Part shown: positions 7,844 through 55,764 of the stretch, in pieces | Layout: the number at the start of each line of letters is the position of its first letter | How positions within the stretch are numbered: the stretch's first letter is position 1 | Assembly: GCA_017508305.1 (NCBI GenBank) | Contig: JAFVZF010000119.1 | Span: forward strand, 34-64,033 | Direction of reading: 5' to 3' | DNA length: 64,000 bases | Origin: Paludibacteraceae bacterium | GTDB lineage: Bacteria > Bacteroidota > Bacteroidia > Bacteroidales > Paludibacteraceae | Notes under the pieces: generated by a model | Database searches by the model: none | The model's input: only the letters and a program-made list of their open reading frames with translations | What the model was told of the DNA's origin: nothing | Made by a program: the position numbers and the translations under genes

Positions 7844-7849
7844 ATGTTG

Positions 7850-7912
7850 TTGGTTATTTGGTTATTTGGTTATTTGGTTATTCGATTCACCGATTCACCG
7901 TCGCGTAGCGAC
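7850..7912. repeat. 8-bp-periodic word array (GGTTATTT x3, then GATTCACC x2) plus a small GTCGC-GTA-GCGAC hairpin, directly upstream of clpP
   Basis: Read directly: ttggttatttggttatttggttatttggttattcgattcaccgattcaccgtcgcgtagcgac. Confidence 0.85.
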
Positions 7913-21377: not shown

Positions 21378-21478
21378 TCACCTCATCACCAAATAACCAA
21401 AAGTTGCGATTAGGCGATTAAACGATTAGGCGTGAGCGAAGCGAGCAAATAAACGACTAAACGACTAAACGACTAAAC
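21378..21478. repeat. Word arrays (CACC/AAATAACC, CGATTAGG/CGATTAAA, AAACGACT x3) flanking a degenerate core fragment (gcgtgagcgaagcgagc)
   Basis: Read directly. It ends 8 nt before the ATG at 21486. Confidence 0.8.
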
Positions 21479-21485
21479 AAATAAT

Positions 21486-32755: not shown

Positions 32756-32773
32756 CCAAAGATATGAAAGAGC

Positions 32774-32893
32774 GTACCAAATAGCAAAGCATCCCATACG
32801 GTCCCTGAGCCTGTCAAAGGGCCCTACCAAATAGCAAAGCATCCCATACGGTCCCTGAGCTTGTCGAAGGGCCCGTACAAATTACAAACCATC
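32774..32893. repeat. Tandem 50-bp direct repeat (2.4 copies); each full unit ends in an S-type stem-loop (GGTCCC-TGAGCYTGTCRAA-GGGCC)
   Basis: Unit 32774-32823 and unit 32824-32873 differ at 4 of 50 positions (92% identity). A decayed third partial unit follows. Confidence 0.9.
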
Positions 32894-32907
32894 TTAATTA
32901 TTTTCTT

Positions 32908-33165
32908 ATGGAAACAAAAGCTTACATGTACATTTTATTGTGCGCAGACGGAAGTTACTATACTGGTAGTACCACCAATTTAGATATAAGAATAGCGCAA
33001 CACTTATCAGGTGAAGGCTCTAATTATACCAGAAAACATAAACCAATAAAATTACTCTACACAGAAGAATACGATAGTATTGAGGATGCATTTTTTAGAG
33101 AGAAACAAGTACAAGGTTGGAGTAGAAGAAAAAAAGAGGCGTTAATCTGTGGAGAGTGGAAGTAG
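32908..33165 (+). CDS. GIY-YIG nuclease family protein (stand-alone URI domain, COG2827-like)
   Basis: 85 aa: YMYILLCADGSYYTGSTTNLDIRIAQH...EEYDSIEDAFFREKQVQGWSRRKK. The GIY, YIG, R and E/N positions are recognisable. Confidence 0.88.
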   Translation: METKAYMYILLCADGSYYTGSTTNLDIRIAQHLSGEGSNYTRKHKPIKLLYTEEYDSIEDAFFREKQVQGWSRRKKEALICGEWK

Positions 33166-33185
33166 AGTTTCCTTTGAATATGATT

Positions 33186-33390
33186 GGCATAATCAATGCT
33201 GGCATTTCGACAAGCTCAATGACCGCATTGCTTTGCAATCATATTGCATAATTTTTCGGTCCCTGAGCCTGTCGAATTTTGCGAGTAAGTGAGAGCAATG
33301 ATAAGCTTGCTTAATCATTGCCGAACGAGAGCAACTTATTACATGATTTTAGGCATCGGCTCAGCATAATCCATGTAAACATGGTTTCTG
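33186..33390. repeat. Repeat nest: an inverted S stem-loop, a truncated S unit, an inverted H-core copy and a further hairpin fragment
   Basis: 33201-33226 is the reverse complement of an S unit. 33258-33276 is cggtccctgagcctgtcgaa. The reverse complement of 33281-33335 matches 47057-47110 closely (gcaatgat...atcattgc hairpin). Confidence 0.85.
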
Positions 33391-33467
33391 CATTCACCTC
33401 GCACTAAAATTCATGAGCATAGCGAATAAAGGGCCCGAAACAATGATAAACCAAATATACATTATAC

Positions 33468-35828: not shown

Positions 35829-35992
35829 TTACTCAAAGCTTCGCTTTTCGTGAAGTTGCTTTCGTTAGCTTCGCTCAAGTTGCTCACGCTCGGCATAATC
35901 AATGCAAACATTGCTTCTGCTCTCGCTTAATCGCAACAGTCGGCATAATCAATGTAAACATTGCTTCTGCTCTCACTTAATCGCAACTTTTG
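35829..35992. repeat. H-core repeat element whose hairpin-containing half is tandemly duplicated (35891-35940 and 35941-35987)
   Basis: ...gttgctcacgct followed by two copies of cggcataatcaatg(c/t)aaacattgcttctgctct(c/t)(g/a)cttaatcgcaac. Confidence 0.9.
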
Positions 35993-37228: not shown

Positions 37229-37384
37229 GATGAATCGACTAATCGACTAACCGACTAATCGAAGGTTGTTATTAAAAGGGTGAAAATAGCTTGCTCACAT
37301 ATAAGTGGTGATTCGGTGATACGGTGATTCGGTGATTCGGAAGTTATCAACTCACCGCCTCACCAAATAACCAACTCACCGATT
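37229..37384. repeat. Two word arrays (CGACTAAT-type at 37233-37262; GGTGATTC- and CACC-type at 37307-37384) filling the OYE / 5alpha-reductase spacer
   Basis: gaatcgactaatcgactaaccgactaatcga ... ggtgattcggtgatacggtgattcggtgattcgg ... ctcaccgcctcaccaaataaccaactcaccgatt. Confidence 0.9.
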
Positions 37385-38150: not shown

Positions 38151-38159
38151 ATTATTTTG

Positions 38160-38266
38160 ACTAATCGACTAATCGACTAACCGACCAATCGAGAATTATG
38201 TTATGAATAAAATTATTCGCATTCGCTCATGCCTTTTATTATTAAAATTATTCGCATTCGCTCATG
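38160..38266. repeat. Word array (CGACTAAT-type, 38160-38193) followed by a 22-bp unit, aaattattcgcattcgctcatg, repeated twice
   Basis: Read directly. The units lie at 38210-38231 and 38245-38266. Confidence 0.8.
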
Positions 38267-39266: not shown

Positions 39267-39329
39267 GTCGAAAGTCAAAAGTTAAAAGTAAAACGACCTT
39301 CGACCTTTGACTTTCGACTTTTGACCTTT
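39267..39329 (-). terminator. Long imperfect hairpin built from inverted TCGAAAGTCAAAAG-type words, followed by a T-run on the minus strand; likely polA terminator
   Basis: The minus strand reads aaaggtcaaaaGTCGAAAGTCAAAGG...ACTTTTGACTTTCGACatttttt immediately after the polA stop. Confidence 0.55.
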
Positions 39330-42241
39330 CAATGTGCTTCCAACCAATTTGTGCCAATTCCGCAGTCTGCAATAAGTGGAACGTTCAGTTTTATCGCTTG
39401 TTGCATTTCGTGGCAAACAATCTGTTTTACTTGTTCCAATTCGTCGGGATAAACATTAAAATTAAGTTCGTCGTGCACCTGTAAAATCATTTGCGATTTA
39501 AGATTTGACTTTTTAAATGCTTGGTCGATAGCAATCATCGCTACCTTGATAATATCGGCTGCACTGCCCTGAATGGGGGCATTGATGGCGTTTCTTTCGG
39601 CAAAACCACGCACAAAACTATTGCCCGAGTTAATGTCGGGCAGGTAGCGTTTTCTGCCCCATAGTGTTTGTACATATCCTACTTGTCGTGCCTGCTCAAT
39701 GCAATTGTCCATGTAGGTTTTTATTTGTGGATAGGTCTCAAAATAGCCGTCGATAAGCTGTTTGGCTTCGCTGCGCTGTATTTGTAAGCGCTCGCTAAGT
39801 CCAAATACCGAAATGCCGTAAATAATGCCAAAATTGGCGGTCTTGGCTTTTCGACGCATATCGGCAGTAACTTGGTCGATGGGTACTTTGTATATTTTGG
39901 CAGCAGTGGCAGCATGAATATCGCCATCCATGTTAAAGGCCTCAATCATGGCACTATCGCCACTAAGGTGCGCCATGATGCGCAATTCTATTTGCGAATA
40001 GTCGGCAGAGAAGAACAGGCAACCCTCGTCGGCAATAAAACATTTTCTTATTTCTTTGCCCATATCGTCGCGCACCGGAATGTTTTGCAAGTTGGGATTG
40101 CTCGAACTGAGTCGCCCTGTAGCCGTTACCGCTTGGTTGTACGAGGTATGAATTTTGCCGGTCGTAGGGTTTACCAACAGTGGCAGTGCCTCAATGTAGG
40201 TGCTCAACAATTTTTTGATACCCCGATAATCCAATATTTTTCCCACAACGGGGTGCTTGTGGCGTAACCCCTCCAACACCTCTTCGGAGGTAATGTATTG
40301 TCCGGTTTTGGTTTTTTTGGCTTTGTCTACAATCTTAAGCCTGTCAAAAAGCACTTCGCCCACTTGTTTGGCAGAGCTTATATTAAATGTACAGCCCGAT
40401 AGGGCATATACCTCTTGTTCGATGGCAGAGAGTTGCTCATGCAAATGTTGCGACGAGGCTTTCAACGCATTGGAATCGATTCTAACCCCTGCCATTTCCA
40501 TGTTTACCAAGGTACGCAATAGGGGCATCTCTAACTCGTAAAAGAGTTTTTCCATGCCCGCCTGCTGTAGCTCCTTGGCTAATATCTCTTTGAGTTGTAA
40601 GGTAATGTCGGCATCCTCGGCGGCATATTCTGCTACCTGTTCAATGGGTATTTGGTCGATGCTTTTTTTGTTTTTGCCTTTTCCACCTACCAAATCGTCG
40701 TAGGCGATGGTTTGGTAGTGCAAGTAAATCTCTGCCAAGTAATCCATGCCGTGTCGCAATTCCGGTTGCAACAAGTAGTGTGCCAGCATGGTGTCAAAAA
40801 GCGGCCCGTTTACCTCTATGCCGTAGCGTTTAAGCAGCAGTAAATCGAACTTACAATTTTGTCCTATCTTGAGGGTGTTTTCATTTTCAAAAGCAGGACG
40901 CAAGTAGGAAAGTATGTTTTTGCTATTTTGTTCATTAACAGGTATATAATACGCCTCGTGGGCTTTCCATGCAAACGACAGTCCCACCAACTTATCGCTC
41001 ATCACCTGCAAACCGGTGGTTTCGGTATCAAAGCAAAAAGCCGATTGCGCCTTTAAAACTTCTGCCCATTGGGGCAATTGCTCCTCTGTAATAAGCTGGT
41101 AGTTATGCGCTGTGGTATGGATATTGCTGTGCTCTGACGATGCTGTAACTTGGTGTTTAGTCGTTGATTCGTTTAGTTGTTTAGACGATTCTGGACATTC
41201 CGATTCGTCATTATCCAATCCTGCAAACAAGTCCATCATGCCGTCATCTTTGGTAATTCGGTGATTTGTTTGTTTAGTCGTTGAGTCGTTTAGTCGTTTA
41301 GTCGATTCATCAATCCCGCTATTCATCGATTCACCGATTAGTCGATTCCCCGATATTTCTCCTTTCTCCTTTATCAACTCTCCTTTCTGATTGCGAAGCA
41401 GGCTCCTAAATTCCAACTCGCTAAAAATGGTACGCAATGCTTCGGTGTCAGGTTGCTGCCTTAACATTGCATTTTCGTCGAAAACAAGGGGTACATCCGT
41501 TTTAATGGTCGCCAAAAATTGCGAAAACTTAATTTGGTCGATGTTGTTTTCTATCTTAGTTTTAAGCGCTCCTTTTAGTAAATGCGTGTTGCCGAGCAGG
41601 TAGTCGATGCTACCAAATTCTTGCAACAATTTGACCGCTGTTTTTTCGCCTACGCCGGGACAACCGGGAATGTTATCGCTACTGTCGCCCATAAGTCCTA
41701 GCAAATCAATTACTTGCAGTTGGTCTTTGAGTCCGTATTTTGCCGTTACTTCTGCAACACCCATTACCTCGTACCCGCCGTTGTGTCGAGGACGGTACAT
41801 AAAAATATGTTCGTCTACCAGTTGGCCGTAATCTTTATCGGGTGTCAGCATAAATACCTCAAATCCTTTGGTGGCGGCCTGTTTTGCCATGGTTCCAATC
41901 ACATCGTCCGCCTCAAACCCTTTTACCTCAAAAATAGGAATGCGATACGCATTCAGTACCTCTTTGATAATGGGCACCGAAAGCCGAATATCTTCTGGCG
42001 TTTGCTCTCGTCCTGCCTTGTAGGCATCGTATGCTTCGTGTCTGAAAGTAGGTCCCGAAGGGTCGAAAGCAACCCCGATATGGGTGGGTTGTTCGCGCTT
42101 TAGTACATCTTCGAGCGTATTGACAAAGCCCAAAATAGCCGAAGTGTTTAGCCCCTTGGAGTTAATACGTGGGGCTTTTATAAAGGCAAAATACGCTCTA
42201 TATATTAGGGCGTAGGCATCCAAAAGAAATAATTTTTTCAT
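39329..42241 (-). CDS. polA: DNA polymerase I, with a repeat-derived, low-complexity linker between the 5'-nuclease and 3'-5' exonuclease domains
   Basis: 970 aa. 5'-3' exonuclease N-terminus (LLDAYALIYRAYFA...), FDTETTGL (exo I), and the polymerase motifs DYSQIELR and QVHDEL. Confidence 0.95.
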   Translation of the reverse strand: MKKLFLLDAYALIYRAYFAFIKAPRINSKGLNTSAILGFVNTLEDVLKREQPTHIGVAFDPSGPTFRHEAYDAYKAGREQTPEDIRLSVPIIKEVLNAYRIPIFEVKGFEADDVIGTMAKQAATKGFEVFMLTPDKDYGQLVDEHIFMYRPRHNGGYEVMGVAEVTAKYGLKDQLQVIDLLGLMGDSSDNIPGCPGVGEKTAVKLLQEFGSIDYLLGNTHLLKGALKTKIENNIDQIKFSQFLATIKTDVPLVFDENAMLRQQPDTEALRTIFSELEFRSLLRNQKGELIKEKGEISGNRLIGESMNSGIDESTKRLNDSTTKQTNHRITKDDGMMDLFAGLDNDESECPESSKQLNESTTKHQVTASSEHSNIHTTAHNYQLITEEQLPQWAEVLKAQSAFCFDTETTGLQVMSDKLVGLSFAWKAHEAYYIPVNEQNSKNILSYLRPAFENENTLKIGQNCKFDLLLLKRYGIEVNGPLFDTMLAHYLLQPELRHGMDYLAEIYLHYQTIAYDDLVGGKGKNKKSIDQIPIEQVAEYAAEDADITLQLKEILAKELQQAGMEKLFYELEMPLLRTLVNMEMAGVRIDSNALKASSQHLHEQLSAIEQEVYALSGCTFNISSAKQVGEVLFDRLKIVDKAKKTKTGQYITSEEVLEGLRHKHPVVGKILDYRGIKKLLSTYIEALPLLVNPTTGKIHTSYNQAVTATGRLSSSNPNLQNIPVRDDMGKEIRKCFIADEGCLFFSADYSQIELRIMAHLSGDSAMIEAFNMDGDIHAATAAKIYKVPIDQVTADMRRKAKTANFGIIYGISVFGLSERLQIQRSEAKQLIDGYFETYPQIKTYMDNCIEQARQVGYVQTLWGRKRYLPDINSGNSFVRGFAERNAINAPIQGSAADIIKVAMIAIDQAFKKSNLKSQMILQVHDELNFNVYPDELEQVKQIVCHEMQQAIKLNVPLIADCGIGTNWLEAH
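41150..41390. repeat. Word arrays (GTCGTTTA, GATTCACC and TCTCCT types) lying inside the polA reading frame
   Basis: ggtgtttagtcgttgattcgtttagttgtttagacgattc ... gtttagtcgttgagtcgtttagtcgtttagtcgattcatc ... cgattcaccgattagtcgattcc ... tttctcctttctcctttatcaactctcctttc. Confidence 0.85.
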
Positions 42242-44909: not shown

Positions 44910-45055
44910 TGTTTATGTGTTTATGCGTTTAGTCGTTTAGTCGTTTAGTCGTTTATGTATTCAAAGCTTCGCTTTTCATGATTTCAGGCTGCGCCTTGGC
45001 ATAACCAAACAAGTTTGCTTCTGCGCTCGGCTTGCACTGAAATTCGATTCGGTTT
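44910..45055. repeat. Word array (GTCGTTTA x3) plus a degenerate H-core-like element
   Basis: gcgtttagtcgtttagtcgtttagtcgtttatg, then ttcaaagcttcgcttttcatgatttcaggctgcgccttggcataaccaaacaagtttgcttctgcgctcggc. Compare 35829-35900. Confidence 0.7.
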
Positions 45056-46894: not shown

Positions 46895-47030
46895 GAATTA
46901 GTTTATAGGGTGCTTTTTGCGTTGTGCTTGTGCTCAAAATCCTCATTTACGTTTAGTAAACTCCGGTTTTTCGCACTGCGCACGCCTTAAAATCCCACCT
47001 CTAAACATAATTCTTATTAAAATAATCGCA

Positions 47031-47146
47031 TTACTCGGGCTTCGCCCTCGTGATTTTGCTCACGCTCGGCAATGATTAAGCAAGCTTATCATTGCTCTCG
47101 CTTACTCGCAAAATTCACCGCATCACCGAATAACCGCATCACCAAC
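47031..47146. repeat. Complete H-core element (47031-47111) followed by a word array (47112-47146)
   Basis: ttactcgggcttcgccctcgtgattttgctcacgctcggCAATGATTAAGCaaGCTTATCATTGctctcgcttactcgcaa, then aattcaccgcatcaccgaataaccgcatcaccaac. Confidence 0.9.
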
Positions 47147-48920: not shown

Positions 48921-48960
48921 GTCGCTTCGCTCCGGTGAATCGGTGAATCGGTGATTCGAA
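48921..48960. repeat. Word array (GGTGAATC x2, GGTGATTC) upstream of rpsB
   Basis: gtcgcttcgctccggtgaatcggtgaatcggtgattcgaa. Confidence 0.8.
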
Positions 48961-51675: not shown

Positions 51676-51860
51676 ATTGTTTAGTTGTTTATTCGGGCTT
51701 TGCCCTCATGAAGTTGCTCACGCTCGGCATAACAAATAAATTTGTTCTGCTCTCGCTTAATCGCAACTTTAGTCGTTTAGTCGTTTGGCGATGAGCTATG
51801 ATTGATATGTTGCACTGCGCAATTGCATCATCGCATCACCGCATCACCGCATAGCCAATT
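51676..51860. repeat. Word array + H-core (51688-51767) + word arrays, filling the spacer and entering the 3' end of the next gene
   Basis: attgtttagttgtttattcgggctttgccctcatgaagttgctcacgctcggcatAACAAAtaaaTTTGTTctgctctcgcttaatcgcaactttagtcgtttagtcgtttgg ... catcgcatcaccgcatcaccgcatagcc. Confidence 0.9.
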
Positions 51861-52757: not shown

Positions 52758-54278
52758 TTAGAACTGAAAATAAATAAAGTTTTGCTGTGGTCCCATGTTG
52801 ATGATAATCAAAAGCGATAGGATAAAATAAATGCAGTATCGTACTGCATTGTTATGTATGCCCCTAACGGCAAGTCCGTGGTTTTCTGTGCGGTTAAACC
52901 ATTCCATGCCAATCATTATCAGCAACGGCAAAAAGATAAATACCTTGTTGGTAAGGTAGGGCATGTCCCATAGCTGGGGAGTACACAAACGTTCAAAATA
53001 CAGCAAGGTCATGTCCATGTTGTCCGATCGAAAGATAACCCATCCCACTACAGCCAATAAAAAAGTAATAGTCATCTTTGCTACTTCCGATAGGGAGGGC
53101 CAACATTTTACTGCCTTCAAATCGGTGGCATCCTTTGCCATAGAGCAAGTTGCCACCACATTGGTATATTTTCTGTTTTTCTCCAATAATATAAGCGGTA
53201 AGAATAGCAGGGCATGATAGGTTCCCCACACCAAAAAAGTCCAGTTGGCACCGTGCCAAAAGCCCGACAGTAAAAAGATAGTAAAGGTGTTGCGTACAAT
53301 TATTGCCTTTTTATACAAGGTAGGGTGTGCAGTGCCTTGTGGCAAGTTAGGACGCGAGCCTCCCAAGGGGATGTACACATAGTCCCTAAACCAAGTGGTG
53401 AGTGATATGTGCCATCGGCGCCAAAACTCGGCTATGTCGCGCGAAAAATAGGGCACGTTAAAGTTGCGCATCAGCTTGATGCCAAACAGTTTGCCCAAGC
53501 CGATGGCAATGTCGGAGTAGCCCGAAAAATCGCCATAAATCTGAAACGTAAACAGCACGGCAGCCACTGCCAAGGTGGCGGCATTGTGGCTTTCTATATC
53601 GGCAAAAATAATATCCACGTAATAGGCGCAGTTGTCGGCTACCACCACTTTTTTAAACATGCCCCACAGTATTTGGCGCAAACCATCTACGCCATCGGCA
53701 TAATTAAAACTGCGTTTTTGTAGAAATTGGGGCAGTAGGTTGGTGGCACGTTCAATGGGTCCTGCCACCAATTGTGGGAAAAAACTAAGAAACGCCGTAA
53801 AGGCAAGCAGGTTGGTGGTGGGTGGCAGCTTGCCTTTGTACACGTCTATGCTGTACGACAGTGCCTGAAAGGTGTAAAAACTAATGCCCACGGGCAAGAT
53901 AAGGTGCAACAGGTGTTTTTGGGCATCTATTTGTAGTAGGCTCGCCAATGAACTAACAAAAAAATCGTAGTATTTGTACATGCCCAAAATAAACAAGTTT
54001 ACCAGCACGTTACCCAGCATCCAAGCCTTTTTGTGCCATCTAACTTGGCTACGACCTATGGCAATGCCACTGACATACGAGCAAAGCGTGGTAAAGGCAA
54101 TGAGCAGCAAAAAGCGGGCGTCCCACCACCCATAAAACAGGTAGCTGGCACCTACTACCAACGCATTTTGGCAGACAAGTTGATACTTGCTGCCCCGCAT
54201 GGCATGGCCAAATACCCACCAATACAACGCAAAAACGATGGGCAAGAAAACCAAAAACTCGAACGAATTAAAGAGCAT
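52758..54278 (-). CDS. MBOAT family O-acyltransferase (AlgI/DltB-like)
   Basis: 506 aa and polytopic. NFNVPYFSRDIAEFWRRWHISLTTWFRDYVYIPLGG contains the conserved MBOAT His region. Confidence 0.9.
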   Translation of the reverse strand: MLFNSFEFLVFLPIVFALYWWVFGHAMRGSKYQLVCQNALVVGASYLFYGWWDARFLLLIAFTTLCSYVSGIAIGRSQVRWHKKAWMLGNVLVNLFILGMYKYYDFFVSSLASLLQIDAQKHLLHLILPVGISFYTFQALSYSIDVYKGKLPPTTNLLAFTAFLSFFPQLVAGPIERATNLLPQFLQKRSFNYADGVDGLRQILWGMFKKVVVADNCAYYVDIIFADIESHNAATLAVAAVLFTFQIYGDFSGYSDIAIGLGKLFGIKLMRNFNVPYFSRDIAEFWRRWHISLTTWFRDYVYIPLGGSRPNLPQGTAHPTLYKKAIIVRNTFTIFLLSGFWHGANWTFLVWGTYHALLFLPLILLEKNRKYTNVVATCSMAKDATDLKAVKCWPSLSEVAKMTITFLLAVVGWVIFRSDNMDMTLLYFERLCTPQLWDMPYLTNKVFIFLPLLIMIGMEWFNRTENHGLAVRGIHNNAVRYCIYFILSLLIIINMGPQQNFIYFQF

Positions 54279-55764
54279 CTATCAGTGTGGTTAGTTTCAT
54301 AGAGTTAGAACCTTTGATGAGCAATGTTTTGCCCGATAGAGGATGCGCTTGCAACCATTCTTTAAACAGAGAGGTCGATGCAAAGCGTGTGCCGATACCT
54401 GTTGTGGTTTCAAAATTTTTGCCCAATAAGTATGCCTCGCCAATGCCCAGCTGCTCCAATAATGACACTACTTTTTGGTGTTCGGTAGCGCTGTCGTCGC
54501 CCAATTCAAACATATCGCCCAAAATAACGGCTTTGCTATCGGTTTGAATCAAAGCAAAGTTGCGCAGTGCCGCTTCCATGCTGGTTGGATTGGCGTTGTA
54601 GGCATCTACAATTAGGGTGTTGCGCTCGGTTTTGGTTAGTTGCGAGCGGTTGTTTTGAGGGGTATAATCGCTCAATGCTTTGACAATTTGCGCAGCAGGT
54701 ACGCCAAAGTAGTGTCCCACGCAGGCTGCCGATAGCATGTTGCTCACGTTGTAGCTACCAATTAATTGGCTATTAACGTGGTAATTGTTGCCGTCGATGT
54801 TTAGGTCGATGTTTACAAAAGGAGTGCAGCTTACCACTTTGCCGTTAACGGGCAGGGCAGGGTTGGTGCCGTATAATTCGGTCACTGAGCTTGTCGAAGT
54901 GCCCGAATTATACGATTCATCGTTTTCTATGTTAGCAAGCATTTCTTTTAGGTGTGCATTATCGGCATCGACAAACACCGTTTTGCCACGGCTTAGCAGG
55001 TTGTGGTAAAGTTCTGCCTTGGTGTTTTTAACGCCCTCAAAACTACCAAAACCTGCCAAATGCGCCTTGCCCACGTTGGTAATAAGCCCTGCATCGGGCA
55101 TTACGATGTTGGCTAAAAACGCAATTTCGCCAGGATGGTTGGCACCTATTTCTATCACTGCCATGTTGTGCTCTTTGGTAAGGCGCAGTAGGGTTAAAGG
55201 CACGCCAATGTGGTTGTTAAAGTTGCCAAGGGTATAGAGTACGTTGTATTTTTTTGCCAATACAGCAGCCACCAACTCTTTGGTGGTGGTTTTGCCGTTG
55301 GTGCCCGTTATGCCTACGATGGGCGTGCCCAATACTTTGCGGTGGTGTGCTGCCAATTGTTGCAGTGCCACAAGGGTGTCTTCTACGTAGATATAGGGTG
55401 ATTCGGTGATTTGGTGATTTGGTGAGTCGATGTTCTGTCCCTGAGCTTGTCGAAGGGTCGATTCACCGATTACTCGGGCTTCGCCCTCATGAAGTTGCTC
55501 ACGCTCGGCATAATCAATGTAAACATTGCTTCTGCTCTCGCTTAATCGCAACTTTAGTCGATTAGTCGATTCATCGGAAGTTAACAACTCTTTGCGCGAG
55601 GTAAGCACGTACTTGCACCCCATCTCTACGGCTTTTTCGGCAAATTCGTTGCCATCAAAGTTTTCGCCCTTAAGGCACACAAACAAATTGCCCGCTTGGC
55701 AGGCACGACTATCGGTGCACACCCCGTTGCATGCCAAATAAGCTTGGTATATAGTTTCGATCAT
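54268..55764 (-). CDS. murF: UDP-N-acetylmuramoyl-tripeptide--D-alanyl-D-alanine ligase carrying in-frame repeat-element insertions
   Basis: 498 aa. CTDSRACQAGNLFVCLKGENFDGNEF, P-loop GITGTNGKTTTKE, IEIGANHPGEI and DAYNANPTSM. Residues about 62-123 are encoded by a composite repeat. Confidence 0.9.
   Translation of the reverse strand: MIETIYQAYLACNGVCTDSRACQAGNLFVCLKGENFDGNEFAEKAVEMGCKYVLTSRKELLTSDESTNRLKLRLSESRSNVYIDYAEREQLHEGEARVIGESTLRQAQGQNIDSPNHQITESPYIYVEDTLVALQQLAAHHRKVLGTPIVGITGTNGKTTTKELVAAVLAKKYNVLYTLGNFNNHIGVPLTLLRLTKEHNMAVIEIGANHPGEIAFLANIVMPDAGLITNVGKAHLAGFGSFEGVKNTKAELYHNLLSRGKTVFVDADNAHLKEMLANIENDESYNSGTSTSSVTELYGTNPALPVNGKVVSCTPFVNIDLNIDGNNYHVNSQLIGSYNVSNMLSAACVGHYFGVPAAQIVKALSDYTPQNNRSQLTKTERNTLIVDAYNANPTSMEAALRNFALIQTDSKAVILGDMFELGDDSATEHQKVVSLLEQLGIGEAYLLGKNFETTTGIGTRFASTSLFKEWLQAHPLSGKTLLIKGSNSMKLTTLIDAL
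54872..54912. repeat. S-type stem-loop inside murF: a perfect 10-bp outer stem (TATAATTCGG/CCGAATTATA) enclosing TCAC-TGAGCTTGTCGAA-GTGC
   Basis: Read directly. Same loop as the copies at 32800-32823, 32850-32873, 33201-33226 (inverted), 55437-55457 and 59802-59840. Confidence 0.85.
55397..55576. repeat. Composite element inside murF: word array (55397-55432), S unit (55437-55457), words, H-core (55470-55552), word array (55553-55576)
   Basis: The H-core differs only slightly from the intergenic copies at 35881-35940 and 51688-51767. The segment that looks inserted spans 186 bp (62 codons), so the murF frame is preserved. Confidence 0.9.

Follow-up and report, generated by a model that had tools for sequence, protein, structure and literature searches.

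The gene murF in a 64,000-nucleotide stretch of DNA from a Paludibacteraceae bacterium (positions 34 to 64,033 of contig JAFVZF010000119.1; the whole stretch is hereafter called the window) carries an in-frame insert of 177 nt that resembles repeats lying between the genes of the same stretch. It is very likely, in our opinion, that this insert is selfish repeat DNA that accumulated by steps where a surface loop of MurF is permissive, and that its translation gives a hydrophilic and disordered peptide, a passenger of the enzyme. Three repeat families take part in it, that is, tandem 8-nt units (hereafter, words), a short hairpin module (S) and a hairpin-bearing unit (H-unit, whose central part is the H-core). 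The segment is an insertion with a modular and nested structure, similar events have recurred at two sites of MurF and in other genes, the host gene is constrained, and the structure of the H-unit is conserved. The gene and the parts of its insert are as follows.

54268 to 55764, minus strand: murF coding sequence (CDS), coding for UDP-MurNAc-tripeptide--D-Ala-D-Ala ligase, intact, 498 aa (listing of open reading frames [ORFs] and Pfam).
55408 to 55584, minus strand: whole in-frame insert at MurF site 1, residues 61-119, 177 nt, 59 codons (LTSDESTNRLKLRLSESRSNVYIDYAEREQLHEGEARVIGESTLRQAQGQNIDSPNHQI), delimited by comparison with the empty alleles L004 and L001.
55555 to 55584, minus strand: word array on the N-terminal side of the insert, 8-mers of the TAGTCGAT type, encoding LTSDESTNRL (period-8 array 55554-55571 according to Tandem Repeats Finder, TRF).
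55476 to 55554, minus strand: H-unit, with a small hairpin GGGCTTCGCCC at 55476-55486 and a long hairpin AAGTTGC...GCAACTT at 55492-55554, encoding KLRLSESRSNVYIDYAEREQLHEGEA.
55437 to 55459, minus strand: S module GTCCCTGAGCTTGTCGAAGGGTC, encoding TLRQAQGQ, with its core CTTCGACAAGCTCAGG at 55440-55455.
55396 to 55431, minus strand: word array on the C-terminal side, GGTGATTY 8-mers, encoding IDSPNHQI and TESP (TRF period-8 array 55397-55429).
55457 to 55465, no strand assigned: direct repeat GTCGATTCA, copy 1, bracketing the H block.
55565 to 55573, no strand assigned: direct repeat GTCGATTCA, copy 2, on the other side of the H block.

A preliminary description of this DNA, made from its letters alone, had claimed that a repeat of an intergenic family is inserted in frame in murF, and this is confirmed both by the 88-98% identity to other copies in the window and by the existence of empty syntenic alleles. 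Indeed, a BLASTN search of the region 55380-55600 against the 64-kb window matched 35877-35937 (98% over 61 nt, E 9e-28), 35940-35990 (98% over 51 nt), 51693-51783 (88% over 95 nt, E 1e-23) and 47030-47071 (93% over 42 nt), in addition to many further short matches to arrays of 8-nt words, and this likeness is far above chance in 64 kb. The insert had been placed at 55397-55581 (186 bp, codons about 62-123); its limits are corrected here to 55408-55584, with the junction residues L60|L61 and I119|T120, because the codons for TESP (55396-55407), which form the last 12 nt of the C-terminal-side word array, occur in the empty alleles too and hence lie outside the insert. Within the new limits, the length is still a multiple of three and stop-free, as had been proposed; one of the six frames is open across the 177 nt, namely the one used by murF, and the other five hold stops. 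At least nine distinct MurF sequences (P0001-P0008 and P0010, 83-100% identity) share this insert, which is thus not an assembly artefact.

The alignment with orthologues that had been proposed in the preliminary description was performed at the codon level on the window and four syntenic loci (L001-L004), and revealed the following states of site 1.

L001 and L004: site 1 empty (…SRKDL|TESPYIY…).
L002: site 1 with words only.
L003: site 1 with words and S.
Window: site 1 with words, H and S.

These nested states (empty, words, words and S, words and S and H) point to a stepwise pile-up rather than to a single arrival, and the alignment shows an order of gain in which the words would have come first, S second and the H block third. 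The idea of one complete composite element has therefore to be replaced by that of a nested mosaic of three repeat families. In comparison with the words and S allele L003, the window allele possesses 108 nt extra, which contain the H-unit and lie between the two copies of GTCGATTCA, the 9-nt bracket being itself a word; moreover, S occurs without the H-unit in L003. The modular order had also been thought to be the same as in the intergenic copies: this holds for words, H-core and words, but not for S, which is absent from the copies starting at 35881, 47031 and 51676.

The acquisition of modules is not restricted to this allele. The 77 closest MurF homologues (67-100% identity) measure between 432 and 560 aa, and almost all of these differences in length are due to two positions. 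On the neighbour-joining tree of MurF, constructed after taking out the variable regions, H is scattered over six or more separate clades for site 1 and over five or more for site 2, with a words-only allele (P0009) nested within a clade harboring H and S; this distribution shows a recurrent turnover of modules at both sites. The second hot spot, at residue ~281, harbors the same composite in orthologues: P0032, encoded by the locus L004, has the full set of words, H and S at site 2, in the same frame as site 1 of the window (H copy at L004:10710-10781). Only a remnant is found at this site in the window.

54874 to 54924, minus strand: MurF site 2, small in-frame remnant NDESYNSGTSTSSVTEL, with a word and a degenerate S core (54884-54899) read as TSTSS.

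At the two sites, more than 40 different insert alleles were counted, all of them frame-preserving and stop-free. The distant Paludibacteraceae MurFs P0042, P0071 and P0076 (the latter of 560 aa) exhibit other peptides at the same two sites (HFDKLSDR, RLSDRFGF, SLSKGPK), which correspond to S-type modules read in the third frame, at times several in a row.

The H-unit spans ~75-85 nt. In the fold prediction, a small hairpin rich in GC comes first and a long, imperfect one second, whose internal loops are invariant (GCTCACGCTCGGCA / TGCTCTCGCTTAATCGCA) and whose outer and apical stems covary. In 110 distinct copies, the outer-stem pair 7-71 is AU in 55 cases, UA in 22, CG in 18 and GC in 3, and the pair 8-70 is GC in 46, UA in 41 and AU in 18; 97% of the outer-stem cells are paired, vs ~30% when the partner columns are slid. 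The apical segments (78 distinct ones) mostly fold as hairpins as well, with a median of 6 bp. A pattern built on two conserved H blocks retrieved, in a genome scan, at least 113 loci from Prevotella, Bacteroidaceae, Paludibacteraceae, Tannerella forsythia, Porphyromonas, Tidjanibacter, Fermentimonas, Ca. Enterocola and others, the flanking words varying by lineage and the architecture remaining constant. The comparison thus shows a conserved structure, and the H-unit appears to be a multi-copy, structured element throughout the Bacteroidales. A covariance model found five strong and three weak H copies in the window; the one in murF (55488-55559) has the top score, 82.2 bits, and its apical "barcode" recurs unchanged in six copies elsewhere, one of which lies inside polA of another metagenome-assembled genome (MAG). 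The following copies in the window are intergenic.

35873 to 35990, minus strand: H-core with a partial 50-nt tandem duplication, 73.6 bits.
47049 to 47119, minus strand: H-core with a compensated outer stem (ATTTTGC..GCAAAAT) and words at 47115-47143, 81 bits.
51707 to 51774, minus strand: H-core flanked by words, 80.6 bits.
33271 to 33341, plus strand: H-core downstream of a GIY-YIG gene, 67.9 bits.

The duplication at 35873-35990 consists of two copies, 95% identical, repeating the apical half of the hairpin. Head-to-tail arrays of whole H-units, with periods of 73-81 nt, were found at three other loci (L025, L087 and L100). Furthermore, many public gene calls (P0241, P0243-P0249, P0252-P0257) of 46-81 aa correspond to intergenic H-units translated in the open frame (…KLRVSESRSNVYIDYAEREQLHEGEARIIGES…), so that the repeat has given rise to spurious ORFs. 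A census of host proteins using the H peptide was abandoned, as it gave 12 hits in a library of representatives at 50% identity, mostly small ORFs that had been called on intergenic copies, together with an unrelated repeat protein, and a word-indexed search gave nine small ORFs only; neither search measures prevalence. No match above the gathering threshold was obtained with Rfam in the window, and the insert, searched at E up to 10, gave one chance-level match to GA-cis over the word region.

Units of the same kind also interrupt other genes in frame, and the phenomenon is thus far more widespread than the preliminary description had assumed. Eight of the 121-128 H-cores examined lie within long ORFs, all eight in the same orientation. 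Among the hosts, Pfam confirmed CTP synthase (L014), glycerate kinase (L053), a U32 peptidase (L013) and PolA (L047); two others are RHS-like ORFs, neither of which has a Pfam match. In the window, polA itself contains words, especially within 41155-41388.

41230 to 41360, minus strand: in-frame word arrays in polA (CDS 39329 to 42241), encoding SGNRLIGESMNSGIDESTKRLNDSTTKQTNHRITK (TRF arrays 41272-41304 and 41321-41354).

According to the Pfam boundaries, these words belong to the linker that joins the 5'-3' exonuclease domain to the 3'-5' exonuclease domain, and over four genomes this linker exhibits two variable spots, occupied by words, by an H remnant or by a full H-unit; the linker of the Paludibacteraceae MAG L047 has both an H remnant and a full H-unit. 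Two 7-nt arrays are found nearby, TTTCTCC x4.7 in the linker (41356-41388) and CGACCTT x5 directly 3' of the polA stop codon (39294-39330). As for the CTP synthases of Bacteroidaceae and Prevotella (P0190-P0240), they harbor, in loops near that of the H-unit, further short lineage-specific inserts (PLPEKEGSNHW, TQSELSTPLHNREGQ, EENSSTEEEGNGI), which are unrelated to it, are repeat-like and of low complexity, and look like translations of other repeat families.

The modules are read differently from site to site: S as LRQAQG, TSTSS or FDKLSDR, and H as KLRLSESRS…YAERE, AIKREQ…AERE or FASKREQ…MPSVS. Since the same modules appear in different frames at different places, the encoded peptide would not be the conserved thing. 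The constant orientation of the coding copies was at first sight attributable to stop codons alone, but this proved insufficient because the H-core taken alone has open frames on both strands. The mean Kyte-Doolittle values of the H-core range from -0.15 to -0.88 in the sense frames (hydrophilic) and reach +0.73 in the commonest open antisense frame (hydrophobic); moreover, the complement of words of the GAATCACC type carries TGA. On these grounds, selection against truncation (by the stop-rich word complements) and against hydrophobic loops would suffice to explain the orientation. The lengths of the H-units modulo three (43:35:19) suggest a bias towards multiples of three, but they derive from rough boundaries and non-independent copies and were not used as evidence.

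The host gene appears to be functional despite the insert. murF is an essential cell-wall gene, and in this case Pfam found the N, M and C domains of the Mur ligases and no other domain. The flanking motifs are normal, as the preliminary description had noticed, with an intact P-loop GITGTNGKTT at residues 151-160. The protein is 100% identical to that of a Paludibacteraceae MAG. The ratio of nonsynonymous to synonymous substitution rates (dN/dS) is 0.10-0.24 in 10 out of 10 pairwise comparisons between five alleles, the window allele included, and murF is therefore under purifying selection. The gene order murF-MBOAT-x-gcpE-rplM-rpsI-rpsB-tsf-fumarase is kept in the four syntenic loci (without MBOAT and x in L004); in L003 and L004 it runs on into an AMP-ligase gene and in L004 further through LytTR to polA. 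Insert apart, the AlphaFold2 model (from an alignment of 45 sequences) matches MurF crystal structures with template modelling (TM) scores of 0.74-0.77, normalised by target length. The functional state of this copy is supported by all these data, that is, dN/dS, gene order, intact domains and the match of the model. In the same neighbourhood, the gcpE-rplM interval represents a second variable spot: a gene for a 23S rRNA intervening-sequence protein (PF05635; L003:7537-7884) is present there in L003, near H-cores (L003:7359-7474), and an Abi_2 gene in L002.

Concerning the position of the insert in the protein, the preliminary description located it between the N-terminal and the central domains. 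The alignment with the E. coli MurF (1gg4) places it instead within the N-terminal domain, in a short loop that precedes the last strand of the domain and the linker helix, where the E. coli protein has five residues (70-74, between 69 and 75). The structure prediction that had been suggested together with the orthologue comparison gives a predicted local distance difference test score (pLDDT) below 50 for residues 64-118, with confident strands on either side (52-55 and 124-126), so that, according to this prediction, the insert bulges out of a surface loop as a disordered stretch. Should it be translated, tryptic digestion of residues 61-119 is predicted to yield SNVYIDYAER, EQLHEGEAR and QAQGQNIDSPNHQITESPYIYVEDTLVALQQLAAHHR.

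The words, of which GGTGATTC, AGTCGATT and AGTCGTTT are examples, repeat in tandem with a period of 8 nt and are common in the intergenic DNA of this genome. About 18 period-8 arrays were found by TRF in the window; ten of them pass a strict filter, eight falling in the 9% of the window that lies outside long ORFs and two inside polA and murF. It follows from the sequence that three or more pure AATCGACT words give TAA in every frame. Many of the words flanking H-units end in …ATT or …ATC. Word arrays are often placed directly upstream of start codons, in both orientations (7849-7900, 21406-21481, 37233-37262, 38157-38192, 44925-44957 and 48933-48959), those abutting a start codon including 7849-7885 and 21448-21481.

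The S module has its own surroundings in the window. Its core in murF, CTTCGACAAGCTCAGG, is identical to a copy (32854-32869) beside a small gene coding for a GIY-YIG nuclease.

32804 to 33277, plus strand: GIY-YIG nuclease gene (32908 to 33165, 85 aa, Pfam GIY-YIG E 4.7e-18) flanked by S modules.
32804 to 32819, 32854 to 32869 and 33262 to 33277: S copies around the GIY-YIG gene.

This gene lies just downstream of mutS, embedded in repeats (32773-33420), with a 50-nt tandem unit containing S at 32773-32893 and two H-like hairpins downstream of it. A metagenome scan with the GIY-YIG protein of the window retrieved 80 loci (195 kb), which were compared with background loci (828 kb): S-like cores occur in 32 of the 80 loci, often in arrays and on both sides of the gene, with 141 copies per 195 kb vs 14 per 828 kb, that is, ~40-fold denser. 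The copies of S cluster directly around a GIY-YIG gene, in agreement with what defines GIY-YIG-associated repeats, and judging from this density the nuclease is likely to be the cognate of the S family. We also considered the possibility that it was the autonomous parent of the whole composite; this was rejected for the H-unit, as no relative is present at the 113 other H-core loci listed, and was kept for S only.

How the H-units move can be approached through their junctions. Direct repeats of at least 8 nt flank 38 of 121 H-units, vs 7 of 121 in the control, and these repeats are words. A 75-nt H-unit in the CTP synthase gene of L014, for which the orthologues L198 and L199 gave the empty state, has no words and a junction ambiguity of at most 2 nt; given such a naive site without duplication, the flanking repeats are better read as word context than as duplications made by a transposase. 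A T at -2 upstream of the small hairpin, in an A-W-T-Y context, is present in 87 of 97 copies, and a T at +1 after the long hairpin in 81 of 97. No gene family recurs beside the H-units at the 113 loci listed, which implies that the H-unit is non-autonomous. A phage or plasmid origin found no matches and was discarded.

On the basis of these data, the assembly of the insert might have occurred in the following way. A loop already bearing words would attract further events, since the words may supply the A-W-T-Y junction motif favored by the H-unit; alternatively, they might give microhomology for copying from other word-flanked loci. In both cases, sites harboring words would become hot spots because of what the words offer, that is, a preferred junction or microhomology. 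Given that murF is essential, selection would retain only insertions that keep the frame, are free of stops and encode a loop tolerated by the fold, and such a filter might explain the single open frame, the constant coding orientation and the surface position. The peptide itself would be a functionless, tolerated passenger.

Several observations, however, weigh against this interpretation or reduce the strength of its evidence. The invariance of the internal loops of the H-unit is partly imposed, in that the pattern used to search for copies fixed them. The H-core of murF is as intact as any intergenic copy, which fits a recent insertion but also a continued selection on the hairpin. The counts of G·U vs C·A in the apical stems (14 vs 12) favor neither strand of the hairpin as the acting one; an earlier count of 18 vs 1 had been discarded because the excess came from a single position left degenerate in the search pattern. 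Intergenic H copies lean, in relation to transcription, in the same direction as the coding ones (20 vs 9), although this bias is modest. The ancestral state of the CTP synthase site was inferred from orthologues that are ~90% identical. No mobilising enzyme was found, as an all-against-all clustering of the ORFs around the 113 H loci listed gave only clusters of orthologous neighbourhoods. The number of murF copies was judged from 64 kb of genome only; the other refuting conditions named in the preliminary description turned out mostly in favor of its reading. Finally, the translation of the insert, rather than its removal, is something that we infer from the sequence.

Among the different explanations, one in which the insert is adaptive survives best, even though we consider it improbable. 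According to this idea, the hairpin would act in the mRNAs of murF, polA and pyrG as a cis-acting RNA element for a shared control, or else hypervariable loops would be selected for strain diversity. It would be in agreement with internal loops that are invariant and GA-rich on the sense strand, together with covarying stems, across the order; with the shared orientation of the eight coding copies and the corresponding lean of the intergenic ones; with a murF copy that is fully intact and ranks first in the window; and with the very fast turnover at the two MurF sites. Nevertheless, close relatives live with empty alleles, the encoded peptide shifts frame between sites, and the hosts (MurF, PolA, PyrG, glycerate kinase, U32 peptidase and RHS-like ORFs) have no functional theme; moreover, ~30% of the co-directional intergenic copies are oppositely oriented, and no Rfam family is matched.

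We give very little credit to the possibility that the insert is eliminated before the mature protein is formed, as an intron, an intein or a segment bypassed in translation, the open frame being incidental. Mobile inserts that are removed or bypassed are known, such as T4 gene 60 and the mitochondrial "byp" elements, and the 96-nt H-unit segment of murF is strongly structured as RNA (folding energy ~-26 kcal/mol, z = -2.6). On the other hand, neither the window nor, at permissive thresholds, the insert gave a match to any intron or ribozyme family, and intein junction residues and intein domains are absent. Furthermore, the more than 40 alleles at the two sites are all in frame and stop-free and the insert of the window is open in one frame of six; such constraints would be needless if the segment were removed, and hence they count against this explanation.

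No more credible is the idea of a dispensable or decaying murF, with another copy elsewhere in the genome. The visible part of the genome (64 kb) leaves room for it, but the dN/dS values, the integrity of all the domains and of the P-loop, the murF-MBOAT-...-gcpE-rplM neighbourhood shared with insert-free relatives, and the dozens of lineages that keep a full-length MurF in spite of inserts at this locus all speak against it. Lastly, there is almost no chance that the insert is an old lineage-specific loop of MurF, with intergenic copies derived from the gene or similar to it by coincidence: nothing further than the bare similarity favors this reading, which is already refuted by the comparison of orthologous sequences, with empty alleles in syntenic orthologues and a 5-residue loop in solved MurF structures, and which is opposed also by the H-unit at more than 113 unrelated, mostly intergenic loci of many genera, by the same module at the other MurF site and in other genes, and by its patchy spread on the MurF tree.

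The reading of the insert as selfish repeat DNA can be extended, and here we speak only tentatively. The H-unit might be a previously unrecognised mobile element of the whole order, moved in trans by an unlinked enzyme, possibly via single-stranded hairpin DNA, that together with words and S would routinely write fast-evolving disordered loops into MurF, PolA and CTP synthase. In a still stronger version, the hairpin would also be a functional RNA or DNA signal on which host genes have come to depend. If such events are common in the Bacteroidales, which are dominant in gut and rumen, then colonisation of the type known from Rickettsia would no longer be an oddity of that genus, and selfish DNA in proteins, if our reading is true, would not be peculiar to reduced intracellular genomes but would keep generating differences between the proteins of strains in free-living bacteria at large. 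For many housekeeping proteins of Bacteroidales, length differences and low-complexity inserts that are so far unexplained might then find an origin, and should be masked in annotation, structure prediction and phylogenetics; strain-specific loops at hot spots would reveal insertion-tolerant positions, useful for the tagging or engineering of MurF, PolA and PyrG; and polymorphisms in repeat state could allow strains to be told apart sensitively in metagenomes. The junction preference, the word arrays and the link between S and the GIY-YIG gene represent leads to the mobility of the H-unit.

A remaining question concerns the relationship between these repeats and the systems already described. 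In our full-text literature searches, whose coverage was incomplete, neither a paper with the conserved H or S sequences nor a description of an equivalent phenomenon in Bacteroidota was found, the latter in line with the opinion given in the preliminary description. The Bacteroides multicopy small RNAs FopS and GibS (PMC11697453) have an architecture unlike that of the H-unit, which has no Rfam match, and neither a ribozyme fold in the insert nor an intein splicing motif at its junctions, as expected of an intron, an intein or a bypassed segment, is visible. The coding palindromes of Nematomorpha mitochondria (PMC6649704) are likewise long hairpin inverted repeats translated within essential genes; however, they are perfect inverted repeats arising in place, and not a dispersed family shared with intergenic DNA. 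The words resemble the TAACTGA heptamers of Beggiatoaceae, Cyanobacteria and some Bacteroidetes (PMC4679880) in being short (7-8 nt) tandem repeats, mostly intergenic, often directly upstream of start codons and varying between strains by whole units. The words differ from them in sequence and in their 8-nt period, flank hairpins and occur in frame inside genes too; no regulatory role has been shown for either.

As regards the H-unit, two groups of non-autonomous elements deserve a comparison. Like the REPs (extragenic sequences that are repetitive and palindromic) and REPINs associated with RAYT, and the elements of the IS200/IS605 type (PMC3733652, PMC8049555, PMC6006769), it is a multi-copy imperfect hairpin with conserved unpaired bases, a short junction motif, tandem and clustered copies and no long target duplication at the naive site; by analogy, its reliance on a hairpin and the lack of a long duplication may recall single-strand mechanisms of the IS200/IS605 or REPIN type. 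Nevertheless, in the copies listed, neither H hairpin shows a GTAG or CGTC tag at its foot and no RAYT or TnpA gene is seen beside them; the H-unit is bipartite and longer (75-85 nt vs a palindrome of 20-40 bp); and it enters coding sequence in frame, whereas classical REPs are extragenic. [quoted passage not shown] The long hairpin of H is an inverted repeat, but the whole unit is asymmetric and its ends are not inverted copies of each other. In contrast with MITEs, target-site duplications of fixed length are lacking (at most 2 nt at CTP synthase, and repeats of at least 8 nt at 38 of 121 copies only), no parent insertion sequence turned up among the genes beside the 113 loci listed, whole genomes not having been searched, and both the frequency in essential genes and the hot-spot behavior are much stronger.

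The closest likeness is to the Rickettsia palindromic elements (RPEs), which reportedly go back to Ogata et al. 2000. RPEs are palindromic, non-autonomous repeats of ~100-150 bp that occupy both intergenic regions and many unrelated housekeeping genes, always in frame, where they are translated as additional peptide segments at positions compatible with the fold (PMC10969869). In the window and its relatives, too, a palindromic repeat is dispersed between and inside genes, the copies inside genes keep the reading frame and do not disrupt the host ORF, and their presence is polymorphic between related genomes. The suggestion of the preliminary description that a functional essential gene was colonised in an RPE-like manner is thus supported by the empty sites, by purifying selection and by the predicted disordered loop. 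The H family is set apart from RPEs by taxonomy only, no consensus of RPE-1 to RPE-10 having been compared, and we would say that it works like an RPE, not that it belongs to them; it is apparently a different and undescribed family. The hosts are free-living Bacteroidales of gut or rumen and not obligate intracellular Alphaproteobacteria, and three families are nested within one another in the insert whereas an RPE is one element. To this are added the recurrence at hot spots, the rapid turnover of modules that conserve no peptide, and internal loops of the H-unit that are invariant across the whole order.

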